A stretch of DNA of 64,000 nt from Octopus vulgaris (Eukaryota): positions 13,640,001 to 13,704,000 of the forward strand of contig OX597833.1 of assembly GCA_951406725.2 (NCBI GenBank), in the 5' to 3' direction. A program made the position numbers and the translations under genes. The notes beneath the pieces were generated by a model, which saw nothing but the letters and a program-made list of their open reading frames with translations, was not told the origin of the DNA and did no database searches. Shown here in pieces: positions 10,470 to 64,000 of this stretch; position 1 is the stretch's first letter, and the number at the start of each line of letters is the position of its first letter.

Positions 10470-10513
10470 ACACCTGATGAAGGCTGGAGGGTATATCAGC
10501 TGAAACGTTGTGT
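10470..10513 (+). ncRNA. Minimal type I hammerhead ribozyme motif, Penelope-like
   Basis: acac-CTGATGA-aGGCTGG agggtata TCAGCT-GAAAC GTT-gtgt, with a palindromic ACGT stem III. Confidence 0.65.
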
Positions 10514-11669
10514 TAACAACAAACAAGATGAGGACAAACATCCGTCAAATGTAAATAATGTAAATAATTCCTCATCTCTTAAATACAGAAAGGTCAATGT
10601 TGTTGTTATTATTATTATTATTATCATTGTTATTATTAAGTTGTTGTTTTTACAGGTTGATTGACAGAGTAAGGTAACCTAAATCTATGGCCCCAGATAT
10701 GATAAGGGCCAGCATTACAGGAAAAGCAATGCACTGTGGCCCCTTTATACTCCACCACAGCATTCATTATTTAATGATTGCATCCCCCACTCCTCATCTC
10801 CACAATCTATAGGGCTCCTGGACGACTGCCTCGTGTGCCAGGGCCTTAAGAAGGTCCTGGAAATGACTGTACTGAACCTTTGTATTTGCAGTCTACAGCA
10901 AGTCCTTTTGGCTCAAGCCATTGAGAAAATTCTGGGTTTGCTTGTCCCCCTAGAACTGGCACACTTAGGGTTACGATCATGTTCCAGTCAATGGAACAGC
11001 TTGCTCATGAAGTTAGGGTGCAAGTGGCTGAGTACTCCAAAGACACACATACCTATTTCTTTACTACACACAAGGGGCTAAACACAGACGGGACGAACAA
11101 GGACAGACAAATGGATTAAGTCGATTATATTGACTCCAGTGCATAACTGGTACTTATTTAATCGACCCCAAAAGGATGAAAGGCAAAGTCGACCTTGGCG
11201 GAATTTGAACTCAGAACGTAGAGGCTGACAAAATACCGCTAAGCATTCCGCCCGGCGTGCTAACGTTTCAGCCAGCTCGCCGCCATAATGTGGACACACA
11301 TAAGGGTATGTGTGTCCACAGACACACACATACCCTTAACGTAGTTCTGAGGGGTGTGACAAGGCTGGCCTTTTGAAATACAGGTACTACTTATATTTGC
11401 CAGCTGAGTGGATTGGGACAATGTGAAATAAAGTGTCCCTTGTTCAAGGACACAATGCGTCACCAGGATGACCTTACGATCATTAACTGAATACATTAAC
11501 CAATAAGCCACACGCCACTAGAAATAGCAGCCAAATTAGCCCATATGAAAACAAAAGCAGGAGCATTGCATAATGTCATTCTAGACACTGTCTGACAGAG
11601 AAAAATAGGATGTTTAGAATGGCTTTCATTACAAATCTGATATGGAGCACACCAGTGACAAGGGTATAA

Positions 11670-22058: not shown

Positions 22059-22103
22059 CACACGCTGATGACGGGTCAATACCCAGAAACTCGGGTCCAT
22101 GTG
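22059..22103 (+). ncRNA. Type I hammerhead ribozyme motif
   Basis: cacacg-CTGATGA-cGGGT caat ACCCa-GAAAC tcgg GTC-catgtg. Confidence 0.65.
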
Positions 22104-22818
22104 TATTACATCAGGCAGGAGAATGGATTGATGACTTCCCTTAGTAAATAATGATAGGGCACAGATAGTGTGTCAATAGCCAGCTGGAGGAGATGTCTTT
22201 CTGGGGCTACAAGCTACAGTAGCATCGACCCTTAAGGGTTAGCCACATTTAGGTGACAAATATACTTTACAATGTTGTGCGGCTACTCTTTTACTTTCTC
22301 TTTTATTTGTTTCAGTCATTTGGCTGTGGCCATGCTGGAGCACCACCTTTACTCGAGCAAATCGACCCCAGGACTTATTCTTTGGAAGCCTAGTAAATAT
22401 TCTATCGGTCTCTTTTGCCGAACCGCTAAGTTACAGGGACATAAACACATCACCATCGGTTGTCAAGCGATGTTGGAGGAGACAAACATAGACACACAAA
22501 CATACACACACACATACATATATACATATATATATATACATATATACGACAGGATTCTTTCAGTTTCCATCTACCAAATCCACTCACAAGGCTTTGGTTG
22601 GCCCGAGGCTATAGTAGAAGACACTTGCCCAAAGTGCCATGCAGTTGAATGAACCTAGAACCATGTTGTTGGTAAGCAAGCTACTTACCACACAGCCACT
22701 CCTCAGAAATTTATCATGGTATGATCTACATAGCTTGAAACTGCTGTAAACTTACCACACAGATACACCTGTACCTAACAGCCAGAGCAATATAATTTCA
22801 GTAAATATCCTTTATGCA

Positions 22819-22946: not shown

Positions 22947-23053
22947 ATACAATAAAAGAATTTTCTCACTCCATTCTTCATGGCTAGAATTACACACACA
23001 CACAAATTTATATACACACTCATATATGTACATATATATATGTGTGTGTGTAC

Positions 23054-23124
<71 letters not shown>

Positions 23125-23211
23125 TACATATATACATAAATGTAACAGATGGTATAATTGTAAATAGGGCAAATTTTTAGCCATTTCTCCACCAACTGAA
23201 AAAAATGAAGA

Positions 23212-23254
23212 ACCTTAATCAATTTTCGAACCTTATTGCATTCTCATCAGAGGT
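23212..23254 (-). ncRNA. Minimal type I hammerhead motif (downstream tandem copy)
   Basis: acct-CTGATGA-GAAT gcaataag GTTC-GAAAAT tg ATTA-aggt. Confidence 0.65.
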
Positions 23255-23517
23255 GTCTACATCATTCTGACAGTCCCCAGAGAAACAAGCATCCAAACTG
23301 TTTATATACTCAACAAATGCAGCAGTTACTCTATGATGGAGTCCCTAATTTTCATACCAAATGTATTTAAACACTCTATAAAAACCAGCAGCCTGTCAAT
23401 GCGGATCTTAATCCACACAGTATCGAGGTATGATGTAATAATTATGTAACATATTGTATAATTATAAACAGGGCAAATTTTTAGCCATTTCTCCACCAAC
23501 TGAAAAAATGATGAACA

Positions 23518-23560
23518 ACCTTAATCAATTTTCGAACCTTATTGAGTTCTCATCAGAGGT
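23518..23560 (-). ncRNA. Minimal type I hammerhead motif (upstream tandem copy)
   Basis: acct-CTGATGA-GAAC tcaataag GTTC-GAAAAT tg ATTA-aggt. Confidence 0.7.
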
Positions 23561-23817
23561 GTCTATATCATTCTGACAGTCTCCACAGAAACAAGCAGCC
23601 AAATTGTTATAAGGATCTTTGACTCTTGTTTCTAGCAATGTATGTGCTGCTCTATACTCTCAGCCACTATTAGTGACAATTGAAATTTTCGTTTTTGGTT
23701 TTATAAGCTTAGTACTTATTCTATTGAGCTCTTTTGCTGAACCACTAAGTTACAGGACATCACACATTGACACTGGCTCTCAAGCAGTGGTGGGAGGACA
23801 AACACATATACAAAAAT

Positions 23818-23849
<32 letters not shown>

Positions 23850-24147
23850 ACATACACACCCACAAAGACACATACATATATATATATATATATTCAAATA
23901 TATATAACAACTGGCTTTCCTTCAGTTTTCTGTCTACCAAATCCATTCTTAAGGCTTTGGTCAGCTTGAGACTATAGTAAAAGACACTTGCCCAAGGCGC
24001 CATGCAGTGGGACTGAACTTGAAACCATGTGGTTGGGAAGCAAGATTCTTACCACACACCCACGCCTTGAGTTTTTAAAAAAATTATCCGATTTCACTGA
24101 AATAGATAGCTAATTCTGGGACACCCTGTGTATATATATATATATAT

Positions 24148-31925: not shown

Positions 31926-32427
31926 CATAATGGTATTACCTGGATGCAATGGCTAAAATGTCCCTTAAGGCTTGTATCAGATGCTATTCAGCATTTCTTC
32001 TCTCCCTAATAAGTTGCATTTACTTAGCATTGAGTATGGGATGTTTTGGCACAGCTGTTTTGGCACCACTTATTTGGCGTCACTGATTCGACACTTATAT
32101 TTGACATCAGGCATTTTAATGGTTCTCTCATCTACCCCTCTCTCTTCTTCCTGGGATCGATTTGCTCGACTAAAGGTGGTGCTCCAGCATGGCCACAGTC
32201 AAATGACTGAAACAAGTAAAAGAGTAAAAGATGTGCTATTTTCATTCAAAAGCTCTTAGCGTGGTTCACCCCAAAACTGAAGAATCTGAAATAAAAATGA
32301 AAGGACATTACACAGAATAATGAAAACATAACGGTGTTGCCATAGTGTGCTGCTAAGCATTTCACCTGGCGTTCTAATGATTCTGCCAGCTCACTACCTT
32401 TTATAAATTTTGGCACAAGGCCAGCAA

Positions 32428-32775
32428 TTTGGTGTTGGAGAAGACTTCTATGGATTCCATGGACAGTGAGGCTCACCAATGGAGAAGTTCTTAACCAGAT
32501 CAAGCCGAGACTGTCGCTAGAAGTTAGGATCACCAAGCATAGATTGATATATTTTAGTCATATTATGCAGAGAAAATCCCTGGAGAAGGACATCATGCTC
32601 GGAATGGTCAGTGGCAAGAGAGGAAGAGGCCGACCAAGAGCCCACTGGCTTGACACCATCAGGAGTGATACAGGTAATGGACATGGCCAATCTGAAGGAA
32701 GCGGCCCAGGATAGAACTGACTGGAGGACACAGATCCAACGAGTGACCGAGAGTCGACTTCGACTGAGCGGATAA
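32428..32775 (+). mobile_element. RTE (BovB-like) LINE 3' fragment followed by (GATA)n
   Basis: WCWRRLLWIPWTVRLTNGEVL...[35 protein letters not shown]. Confidence 0.9.
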
Positions 32776-35026: not shown

Positions 35027-35230
35027 TACTCTTTTACTTGTTTCAGTCATTTGACTGCGGCCATGCTGGAGCACCGCCTTTAGTCGAGCAAATCAACTCC
35101 AGGTCTTATTCTTTGTAAGCCCAGTACTTATTCTATCGGTCTCTTTTTGCTGAACCACTAAGTGACGGGGACGTAAACACACCAGCGTCGGTTGTCAAGC
35201 AATGCTAGGGGGACAAACACAGACACACAA

Positions 35231-35269
<39 letters not shown>

Positions 35270-35925
35270 TATGACGGGCTTCTTTCAGTTTCCGTCTACC
35301 AAATCCACTCACAAGGCATTGGTCGGCCCGGGGCTATAGCAGAAGACACTTGCCCAAGGTGCCATGCAGTGGGACTGAACCCGGAACCATGTGGTTGGTT
35401 AGCAAGCTACTTACCTTTAATTGAGCAACTCGACCCCGGGACTTATTCTTTTGTAAGCCCAGTACTTATTCTATCGGTCTCTTTTGCCGAACCGCTAAGT
35501 GACGGGAACGTAAACACACCAGCGTCGGTTGTCAAGCAATGCTAGGGGGGACAAACACAGACGCACAAACACACACACGCATATATATATATATATATAT
35601 ACATATATACGACATACGACAGGCTTCTTTCAGTTTCCGTCTACCAAATCCACTCACAAGGCATTGGTCGGCCCGGGGCTATAGCAGAAGACACTTGCCC
35701 AAGGTGCCACGCAGTGGGACTGAACCCGGAACCATGTGGTTGGTTAGCAAGCTACTTACCTTTAATTGAGCAACTCGACCCCGGGACTTATTCTTTTGTA
35801 AGCTCAGTACTTATTCTATCGGTCTCTTTTGCCGAACCGCTAAGTGACGGGAACGTAAACACACCAGCGTTGGTTGTCAAGCAATGCTAGGGGGGACAAA
35901 CACAGACGCACAAACACACACACGC

Positions 35926-35958
<33 letters not shown>

Positions 35959-36130
35959 TACGACATACGACAGGCTTCTTTCAGTTTCCGTCTACCAAAT
36001 CCACTCACAAGGCATTGGTCGGCCCGGGGCTATAGCAGAAGACACTTGCCCAAGGTGCCACGCAGTGGGACTGAACCCGGAACCATGTGGTTGGTTAGCA
36101 AGCTACTTACCACACAGCCACTCCTGCGCC
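35027..36130 (-). mobile_element. Head-to-tail trimer of family A SINE
   Basis: Identical junction gcaagctacttacc|tttaattgagcaactcgacc at ~35415 and ~35760. Confidence 0.9.
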
Positions 36131-40694: not shown

Positions 40695-40870
40695 CATCAT
40701 CATCATCATCATCATTTAGCGTCCGTTTTCCATGCTAGCATGGGTTGGACGGTTTAACTGGGGTCTGTGAAGCCGGAAGGCTTCATCAGGCCCAGTCAGA
40801 TTTGGCAGATTTGGGATGTGGAACAGGTGTAGTGTTATTGGACGCTCAGGAAAGGAAAGAAAGAAGGAGG

Positions 40871-40905
40871 GTTTAACGTTTCGAGTGGAGCTCTTCGTCA
40901 GAAAC
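40871..40905 (-). ncRNA. Minimal type I hammerhead motif, with damaged copies at 21441-21475 and ~46518-46552
   Basis: gttt-CTGACGA-aGAG ctcca CTC-GAAAC GTT-aaac. Confidence 0.6.
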
Positions 40906-44055: not shown

Positions 44056-44700
<645 letters not shown>

Positions 44701-52642: not shown

Positions 52643-53605
52643 TGAAGAAGAAGAAGAAGATGAAGAAACAACAAAAGCTATAAAACAAATGAAATCCAAA
52701 CTAAAAATAGAACAGCAACGAACCATGATAAAACGATGGCAAGAAAAGCCCCTTCATGGTAAATACTGCACTAAACTAAACGCAAAAGAAATAGACAAAG
52801 AAAAATCCCAGCAATGGTTGAGAAGCTCAGGACTCAAAGCAGAAACAGGGATTTTTAATTGCAACACAAGACCAAAGCCTCCCCACCAGAAATTACCAAA
52901 AACATGTAATGAAAAGAAATATTACAAGTAACTGCAGAATATGTGGAGATGGACAAGAAACAATAAATCATATTATCTCTAGCTGCCCAGTCCTGGCTAA
53001 GAAGGAATATATTCACAGACATGACAGAGTTGGAACCTACATACATTGGAAGCTATGCCAACATTATGGAATAACAACAGAAAAAAGATGGTATAGGCAC
53101 ACACCAGAAAAGGTCACAGAAAACGAGAAAGCAACCATACTCTGGGATATGCCGATACACACAGATAGAGAAATTAAGGCCAACAGACCAGATATAGTTG
53201 TCAGAGATCATGAAGAAAAAAAATGCTTTCTAATTGATGTATCAATACCGGCTGATGACAATGTGTCTCTAAAAGAAATGGAGAAACTCTCAAAATACAA
53301 AGACCTGGAAATAGAGATAACTAGAATGTGGAATCTGAAAACAGAAACAATTCCTATCATAGTAGGTGCATTAGGTATGATAAAAAAATATTCAGACAAA
53401 TACATAACAAAAACACCAGGACTTACAAACACATATAACATACAGAAAATTGCACTACTAGGCACTGCACACATCCTACGCAGAACACTTTCCATACAAT
53501 AACCATCAGAGCATCACAACAAATCACAGCACATACCCAAGGCACACAGAGCTGCGCTCGGTAGTGAAGTGAAAGCACGCTATAAAAATAAAACTACTGA
53601 ATGAT
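52643..53605 (+). mobile_element. R4/Dong-like non-LTR retrotransposon 3' fragment (CCHC plus restriction-like endonuclease) in (TAA)n
   Basis: CRICGDGQETINHIISSC, RHD, KANRPDIVV, LIDVSIP and EKLSKYKDL, with a frameshift near 52848 and (TAA)n on both flanks. Confidence 0.92.
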
Positions 53606-57012: not shown

Positions 57013-57057
57013 TCTGTGCTGATGAAAGGAAATAACCCAGAAATCACGATACACAGA
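57013..57057 (+). ncRNA. Type I hammerhead ribozyme motif
   Basis: tctgtg-CTGATGA-aaGG aaataa CCca-GAAATC ac GATA-cacaga. Confidence 0.6.
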
Positions 57058-63739: not shown

Positions 63740-64000
63740 ACTATAATACAGTTAATGGGCTATAATAACCTGTTGTAATTTAGTCAACCATAGTCTGATA
63801 TGATATTTCGGAATAAAATTCCTTCTTCAGATATTCTTAGATGGAGTCACTGCTATAATCTATCTGATTATAAACCGATTATAGCAGTGACTCCATCAAT
63901 TCCTAAGAATATCTAAAGAAGGAATTTCATTTCTAAATATCATATCAGATTATTGATGACTAAATTACAAGTTATTATATCCCATTGACTGTATTGTAGT
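63740..64000. repeat. Foldback of about 260 bp with a minimal hammerhead (63798-63834, minus strand) in the left arm
   Basis: atat-CTGAAGA-aGGAA tttta TTCC-GAAA ta TC-atat. The right-arm copy is mutated. Confidence 0.8.

Follow-up and report, generated by a model that had tools for sequence, protein, structure and literature searches.

A decayed, 5'-truncated copy of a 306-nt repeat with a type I hammerhead and a U6-type promoter signature in Octopus vulgaris, a probable non-LTR retrozyme

The locus described here lies in a window of 64,000 nucleotides of the Octopus vulgaris genome (contig OX597833.1, positions 13,640,001 to 13,704,000) and is a decayed, ordinary copy of a dispersed non-coding repeat family. 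The unit of this family combines a type I hammerhead ribozyme with the signature of a U6-type promoter, and the 5'-truncated copy in the window probably derives from a non-LTR retrozyme whose RNA, predicted to be circular or multimeric, was reverse-transcribed by Neptune Penelope-like enzymes. The motifs, the copy architecture, the promoter match and the neutral decay are read directly in genomic DNA, from the window and from searches of the genome (2.8 Gb), for which the unit was defined as 306 nt ending in GTTACAT and 41 natural units were aligned. The parts of the insertion are the following:

23140..23608, minus strand: whole insertion of ~1.5 units, a 5'-truncated upstream copy followed by one full unit
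23444..23608, minus strand: upstream copy A, starting near unit position 142, immediately past the TATA box
23140..23443, minus strand: full terminal unit B, with promoter spacer, hammerhead B and the 3' end GTTACAT
23522..23556, minus strand: core of hammerhead A with its helix II and its helix III (loop UUGA); cleavage predicted after 23522
23216..23250, minus strand: core of hammerhead B with its helix II and its helix III (loop UUGA); cleavage predicted after 23216
23503..23584, minus strand: region of the extended helix I in hammerhead A, reaching from 23584, which corresponds to the start site, to a T6 run (23508-23503)
23199..23278, minus strand: region of the extended helix I in hammerhead B, reaching from G23278, the predicted start, to a T7 run (23205-23199)
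23345..23356, minus strand: octamer-like upstream element of the U6-type promoter, at about -78 to -67, with one mismatch to the family majority at 23352
23301..23308, minus strand: TATA box TATATAAA, at -30
23216..23521, minus strand: predicted 306-nt monomer between both cut sites, its ends pairing via helix I
23022..23139, no strand: (TA)n/(CA)n microsatellite adjoining the fixed 3' end, the inferred insertion target

The two copies form direct repeats (23444-23608 and 23140-23302) with 91.5% identity over the 165 columns of a pairwise alignment; the direct repeat of ~155 bp described in the initial annotation is present, at the slightly greater length of 165 nt. The same architecture recurs in 30/30 loci from the genome DNA search, which were picked for their likeness to the window locus. 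As that annotation had stated, two type I hammerhead cores lie 306 nt apart on the minus strand (23556-23522 and 23250-23216), helix II is paired in both copies (GAAC/GUUC and GAAU/GUUC), and cuts 3' of both UUA triplets would free a monomer of 306 nt (23521-23216). Both cores read CUGAUGA-helix II-GAAA-AUUGAU-UA and contain the type I residues (C3-U4-G5-A6-N7-G8-A9, G12-A13-A14-A15.1 and U16.1-H17), and motif and constrained fold give three helices with helix I open in each. A loose hammerhead pattern finds 20 matches in the window, partly overlapping, against a shuffle mean of 2.78 and a maximum of 9, and Rfam returned no hammerhead for the window at its gathering threshold, nor any among 52 matches up to an E value of 10. 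Further hammerhead-like cores, belonging to other repeats, are found in the window at 10474-10515 (+), 40867-40901 (-), 22065-22097 (+), 57019-57051 (+) and 63797-63830 (-); the first of these matches the 3' end downstream of the Neptune ORF in another locus of the genome (L127), and those at 22065 and 57019 have their downstream sequence in common.

According to the secondary structure, helix II consists of 5 bp closed by the loop CAAUAA, helix III of 2 bp with the majority loop UCGA, and helix I is lengthened through an internal loop into a long rod, with 39 pairs in the column majority, helix II included. An extended helix I with an internal loop, a helix II of 4-5 bp, a helix III of 1-2 bp and a palindromic loop place this hammerhead, by its predicted structure, in the canonical rather than the minimal metazoan kind. 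The majority helix III word AAUCGAUU occurs in 38/92 pieces and the window copies carry AAUUGAUU; the predicted dimer duplex is worth -1.2 kcal/mol for the window loop UUGA vs -6.1 for the majority. In a model of the RNA that begins at the predicted start and ends with the second T run, the double-hammerhead structure has the minimum free energy (MFE) for the column majority (-105.4); for the window it exceeds the MFE by 3.2 kcal/mol. Two separate monomeric hammerheads would cost 16-17 kcal/mol, so the double-hammerhead fold is favoured in the model. The palindromic loop and this fold support the earlier proposal that the short helix III is of the type acting as a dimer. As a circle, the majority monomer is predicted to fold better than its shuffles (z = -3.2, 0/60 as good), and the window monomer is predicted to fold no better than shuffles (z -1.1 linear, -1.24 circular).

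At the genome scale, the DNA search gave 2376 candidates, the best 40 of which were scored and show 80-88% identity apart from the locus itself, and the family core pattern has 153 exact matches vs 0 for the reversed control; a scan of metagenomes with a pattern for the core gave 0 matches. Outside CpG, divergence from the column majority is 7.3% for the terminal copies of the 30 best-matching loci, compared with 4.5% and 6.5% for the two copies in the window. Where loci were selected by their spacer only, core and flanks are mutated to the same degree (23/327 vs 403/5301); 14/31 pieces retain an intact core, and both cores are intact in 5/23 two-copy loci, the window included. Helix cells are paired in 1363/1560 cases across the 41 units, with 11 two-sided changes. 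Neither core-versus-flank mutation nor these two-sided changes give a signal of selection or covariation, and little covariation is expected, because the copies decay from one master. The family thus reads as one old burst that is decaying neutrally.

No ORF of 110 aa runs across the non-coding unit, and the family has the size (150-450 bp), the GC content below 50%, the head-to-tail order and the absence of LTR, PBS and PPT that define non-LTR retrozymes; a part of its copies also has two hammerheads in succession, as the definition asks. A further feature of that definition, multimeric arrays of trimers and longer, was absent from the loci examined: the genome search for multimers that the initial annotation had called for revealed neither a tandem array nor a clean 2-mer in 100 loci and 29 exact-junction loci, and rare arrays are possible, as only top candidates were scored. 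Arrays are common in the described retrozyme families considered here but not universal, the share of monomers ranging from 0 to 1. The retrozyme-like family suggested earlier is supported by the genome copies, the core pattern and the copy architecture.

The U6-type promoter and the T run are features additional to those of the initial annotation. The spacer holds the signature of the U6-type (Pol III type 3) promoters of this genome, TATGCAAATNAG at -77 and a TATA box at -30; in the majority spacer, ATGCAAAT stands at unit 89 and TATATAAA at unit 136. The U6 genes of the genome carry the same pair at -76 to -78 and -30, the signature is common to U6, U6atac and RNase MRP genes, and it is absent from 15 U2 loci. 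A descriptor based on U6 and the unit, and fixed before the flanks of RNase MRP and U6atac were examined, matches the top RNase MRP match (1/8), the top U6atac match (1/10) and 7/35 U6 flanks at 3 independent places, the rest of which look like retrocopies; this denominator of 35 is soft, because several of the 20 extra flanks are off register and one is a duplicate locus. The descriptor matches 27/41 natural units and, in the window, this spacer only, with 0 sites in 335 kb of control loci (including the 15 U2 loci) and 2/20000 shuffles. The upstream element and TATA box at the spacing of the host U6 class, a pyrimidine/purine start and a downstream T run together make up the type 3 layout, which in vertebrates specifies Pol III according to PMC9652321. 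The predicted start, G166, opens the inner rod at the foot of helix I and precedes the core by 28 nt. The unit contains a single run of at least four T, which comes after helix I, and the T7 run after the ribozyme is the predicted Pol III terminator; six or more T are found in 27/41 natural units. The family was likely transcribed from this U6-type promoter, and since 82/100 copies extend upstream of the predicted start of their own terminal unit, the promoter would travel inside the RNA, a situation that PMC6765202 describes for the hammerhead SINEs of Schistosoma. A source locus needs ~1.75 units, for which 1 clean locus in 100 qualifies; only one of the three loci with an upstream promoter is clean, because the other two (L229 and L267) are rearranged.

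Some observations touch on these promoters in their own right. The U6-class promoter of the genome can be written as TATGC(A/T)AATNAG at ~-77 plus TATA at -30 (L188, L190, L195-L199, L317, L325), U2 genes have different upstream words, and a five-copy U6 tandem cluster is present on C1. In five loci (L229, L267, L269, L270 and L280), rearrangement breakpoints fall at unit 165-173, which coincides with the predicted start and the rod's 5' arm; in L267, the segment with the promoter (unit 34-165) is present three times in tandem.

The suggestion that the window locus is itself a source of circular RNA is not borne out. Upstream copy A contains hammerhead A and lacks the promoter, the repeat beginning downstream of it; both helix III loops are without a perfect palindrome, and the family decays neutrally. 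Because the upstream repeat has no promoter, the window copy is probably no such source; although both of its cores are intact, it is probably silent and probably a dead end. As the upstream copy starts at about unit 142 and the internal promoter has a mismatch, a 306-nt RNA would arise only via host read-through. The junction of 23216 with 23521, which had been put forward as the test for a circle, would read the same as an ordinary genomic hammerhead, so that such a test is confounded.

The proposed cycle, of which every RNA step and the enzyme are predictions, would begin at a copy of at least ~1.75 units, where the promoter of the upstream unit would start an RNA at G166, at the foot of helix I. 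The polymerase would read through the first T7 run and could stop at the second, and the palindromic helix III strands of the two hammerheads would pair; cleavage by the resulting double hammerhead would free the 306-nt monomer, whose ends, held by helix I, would then be ligated. A Penelope-like reverse transcriptase/endonuclease would nick (TA)n or (CA)n, prime 77 nt beyond the cut, at an ACA(U) site that is internal and fixed, and copy round the template until a random stop, so that only rare long copies would regain a promoter ahead of a full unit. In human cells, type 3 promoters terminate fully at a run of six or more T, as reported in PMC5725217, and 27/41 units have such a run; the cycle therefore needs read-through. 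This T run is its main difficulty: either infrequent read-through suffices or the promoter serves Pol II.

The ends of the copies bear on the form of the template. These were collected in 100 loci, drawn from 155 exact matches to the 3'-terminal motif and chosen by that motif alone, with 5' ends corrected for internal deletions in 9/100. The 3' end is fixed, and a dinucleotide repeat lies within 20 nt of it in 65/82 loci vs 665/5000 control 20-mers (13%). Copies span 0.1-1.8-mers and are truncated at random on their 5' side, with end points that extend across the cut site and the unit junction: 57 of the 5' ends fall in the terminal unit and 43 past the junction, and both cores are spanned in 17/100 loci. 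A suspected pile-up of 5' ends at the cut site did not hold up in the corrected ends of the 100 loci, which show 4 against 3.9 expected, and none is seen at the unit start in these loci either. Because ends do not pile up, the template would have held the junction and an unbroken cut site, as in a circle or an uncleaved multimer. Beyond one unit, the per-base stop rate rises from 0.0038 to 0.0110, a rise that could also come from later repeat recombination or from (TA)n look-alike flanks.

The strongest competitor, which we consider unlikely, keeps the same element and promoter and takes as template a linear, uncleaved multimeric precursor, from a master array that is lost, unassembled or unsampled, with poor cutting and circles as a minor product. 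The upstream-copy 5' ends at risk fall in unit 163-199 in 13/18 cases vs 6/70 in terminal units, in an interval chosen post hoc whose lower edge is at the predicted start G166; because of this clustering, a linear uncleaved precursor from the predicted start fits these ends better than a circle. The planned start-site tests were not significant (5 vs 3.6, p 0.33; 8 vs 4.6, p 0.13). The missing cut-site pile-up fits an absence of cleavage as well as ligation, 8/9 Xenopus retrozyme dimers remained uncleaved in vitro in the experiments reported in 10.64898/2026.07.22.740005, and no fixed differences were found between upstream and terminal copies, as a uniform array would also give. Against such a precursor, no array was found in the loci examined, two or more T7 read-throughs would be required, and the majority rod of 39 pairs brings together bases from before the start and from beyond the T run, as expected of a unit-length or circular RNA. 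Moreover, 6/100 copies extend upstream of the start of their upstream copy, for which no linear transcript from that promoter can be the template, and copies within a locus share slightly more derived variants than copies across loci (28 vs 17.9 in upstream-terminal pairs, 12/2000 permutations; 26 vs 17.7 and 50/2000 without the window locus). A mixture of circular and linear templates is plausible. Two neighbouring copies on C7 (L168 and L169), in opposite orientation and 3.7 kb apart, have an identical upstream-copy sequence and are perhaps a local inverted duplication.

As for the enzyme of the proposed retrozyme cycle, the copies carry the insertion marks of Penelope elements: a microsatellite target, 5' truncation, tails of 20-34 nt into the next unit (L175, L235 and L250) and inverted pieces (L044, L173 and L265), the last two being described for Penelope-like elements in PMC8557442. 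A search of the genome for GIY-YIG endonucleases gave 148 scored matches, and 29/30 of the loci examined encode Neptune-type C-terminal endonucleases; intact Neptune-type ORFs of 781 aa are present. Neptune 3' ends also adjoin (TA)n and have minimal hammerheads, including the U3-A8 core of a kind reported in PMC4209133. Neptune is, on these marks, the likely supplier of reverse transcriptase and endonuclease. A young Neptune family (L122 and L123) has many intact 781-aa frames, a minimal U3-A8 hammerhead near its 3' end and CCAAT/CRE/TATA-like repeats in its 3' UTR.

The insertion marks, the Neptune ORF pieces found near 3/60 and 4/100 loci and the relationship of animal retrozymes to pseudo-LTRs described for Xenopus in 10.64898/2026.07.22.740005 would also suit a repeat that is the pseudo-LTR remnant of an autonomous Penelope-like element after loss of its ORF, a reading that we hold to be improbable. 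The neighbouring Neptune pieces belong to several other families, have minimal hammerheads and 3' ends of their own and lie downstream or more than 1 kb off; the idea that they are template-switch chimeras was rejected, as the families differ and the linkers are TA-rich. The unit has no blastn match in the 30 GIY-YIG loci examined of the 148 scored, the sampled loci have no reverse transcriptase and GIY-YIG ORF upstream of a terminus bearing this hammerhead, and the 100 loci share no foreign upstream flank. The long helix I with an internal loop and the 5-bp helix II also differ from the minimal Penelope hammerheads as described in PMC4209133. The initial annotation had asked whether the unit exists only as the end of autonomous Penelope copies, and the copies found do not answer to this; because no sampled Penelope element ends in the unit, it is better placed as a non-LTR retrozyme than as a Penelope terminus. 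Five of 30 core loci do share a flank and were considered as an autonomous partner, but the flank is a 2.6-kb repeat without a Neptune match. Copies of this repeat, 88-93% identical, passively carry a retrozyme fragment (L064, L066, L067, L078, L081; also L124, L125), and its start resembles the end of a DNA transposon.

Very improbable is that the promoter match is coincidental or vestigial, transcription coming from Pol II read-through or from a TATA/octamer Pol II promoter with the T run merely part of helix I: the run does pair with helix I's purine-rich 5' strand, a switch of type 3 promoters to Pol II is possible according to PMC9652321 and the read-through problem would vanish, but the two elements are exactly spaced, at -77 and -30, relative to a pyrimidine/G start where helix I has its foot, and this spacing is common to three Pol III gene classes and not to U2.

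Compared with known systems, the family can be assigned by its structure to the metazoan non-LTR retrozymes, whose units measure 350-390 bp in mussel, 220-245 bp in coral and 330/350 bp in axolotl in the accounts of PMC7229834 and 10.64898/2026.07.22.740005. It shares with those described there a non-coding, AT-rich unit of ~300 bp, a canonical type I hammerhead, head-to-tail copies, a short palindromic helix III that needs a dimer and the co-existence of Penelope-like elements. Unlike them, the octopus copies are dispersed 0.1-1.8-mers, with no arrays seen and with neutral decay, and circles, which are demonstrated for the metazoan retrozymes, are predicted for the octopus unit. The sections of PMC7229834 and 10.64898/2026.07.22.740005 considered here name no internal promoter, whereas the octopus unit has a U6-type signature, and this predicted promoter sets the family apart from the described retrozymes. 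Literature searches returned no report of a cephalopod retrozyme, the supplements of both papers, which might list an octopus family, being outside their scope, and none of a type 3 Pol III promoter inside a mobile element.

In the Schistosoma hammerhead SINEs Sm-alpha and Sj-alpha, the promoter is tRNA-derived and gene-internal, unlike that of the octopus unit, which matches the gene-external promoter of U6, U6atac and MRP genes. In both systems the Pol III promoter ends up 3' in the cleaved monomer, and only tandem copies can propagate, as set out for the SINEs in PMC6765202. Newt satellite 2, as described in PMC2220036 and PMC6765202, is likewise a hammerhead repeat of ~330 bp with an internal snRNA-type promoter and a dimer-dependent ribozyme; it is Pol II-transcribed and arrayed, whereas the octopus unit has a TATA-containing U6-type signature and a T7 run. 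With Neptune elements, going by PMC8557442 and PMC4209133, the family has in common microsatellite targeting, 5' truncation, partial tandems, tails of 20-34 nt and inverted pieces, and it differs from them in the lack of an ORF, in sharing no sequence with the sampled families and in its canonical, not minimal, hammerhead.

The family bears on how animal retrozymes are transcribed and on whether their copies come from circles. It offers base-level predictions of the start site, terminator, cut site and priming site, a rule for which copies can be sources, and a sequence definition of the U6-class promoter of this lineage, which is useful for guide-RNA expression. A more far-reaching reading, offered tentatively as a possibility that we rate as rather doubtful, is that a gene-external U6-type Pol III promoter is kept in an RNA circle closed by the ribozyme, that Penelope reverse transcription for more than one turn restores the promoter before a full unit, and that the T7 run acts as an attenuator giving an 80-nt free hammerhead RNA and rare circles, the family being extinct in this genome and alive and very abundant in organism B. 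If so, a gene-external promoter, which linear retroelements cannot carry, would be usable by a mobile element.

Relatives of the family were sought in contigs of 4/24 sequencing runs, whose type (RNA) was guessed and whose contig depth does not measure expression. In organism A, three runs contain diverged pieces of the family at a summed contig depth of up to ~170, and one run of organism B, which may be DNA, contains relatives at a summed contig depth of up to 6 x 10^5; the depth in organism B covers the promoter part and also crosses the cut site and the T run. Joints that go back 305/307 were rejected as circles, as they link equivalent places of two repeats and reflect mapping ambiguity. 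In the loose ends of run X6 (organism B), compared with 23150-23650 of the window, a variant hammerhead has a helix II of UGGCC/GGUUU with a U-U and an extra helix I base, and this relative may be a living one.

Elsewhere in the window, frames that by eye resemble fragments of LINE-type reverse transcriptase/endonuclease lie at 52822-53502 (+), 44225-44695 (-) and 32346-32714 (+). A SINE-like unit of 345 bp forms three tandem copies with 95% matches at 35077-36111, and the same type of repeat also flanks the insertion, at ~22380-22700 and 23700-24070.
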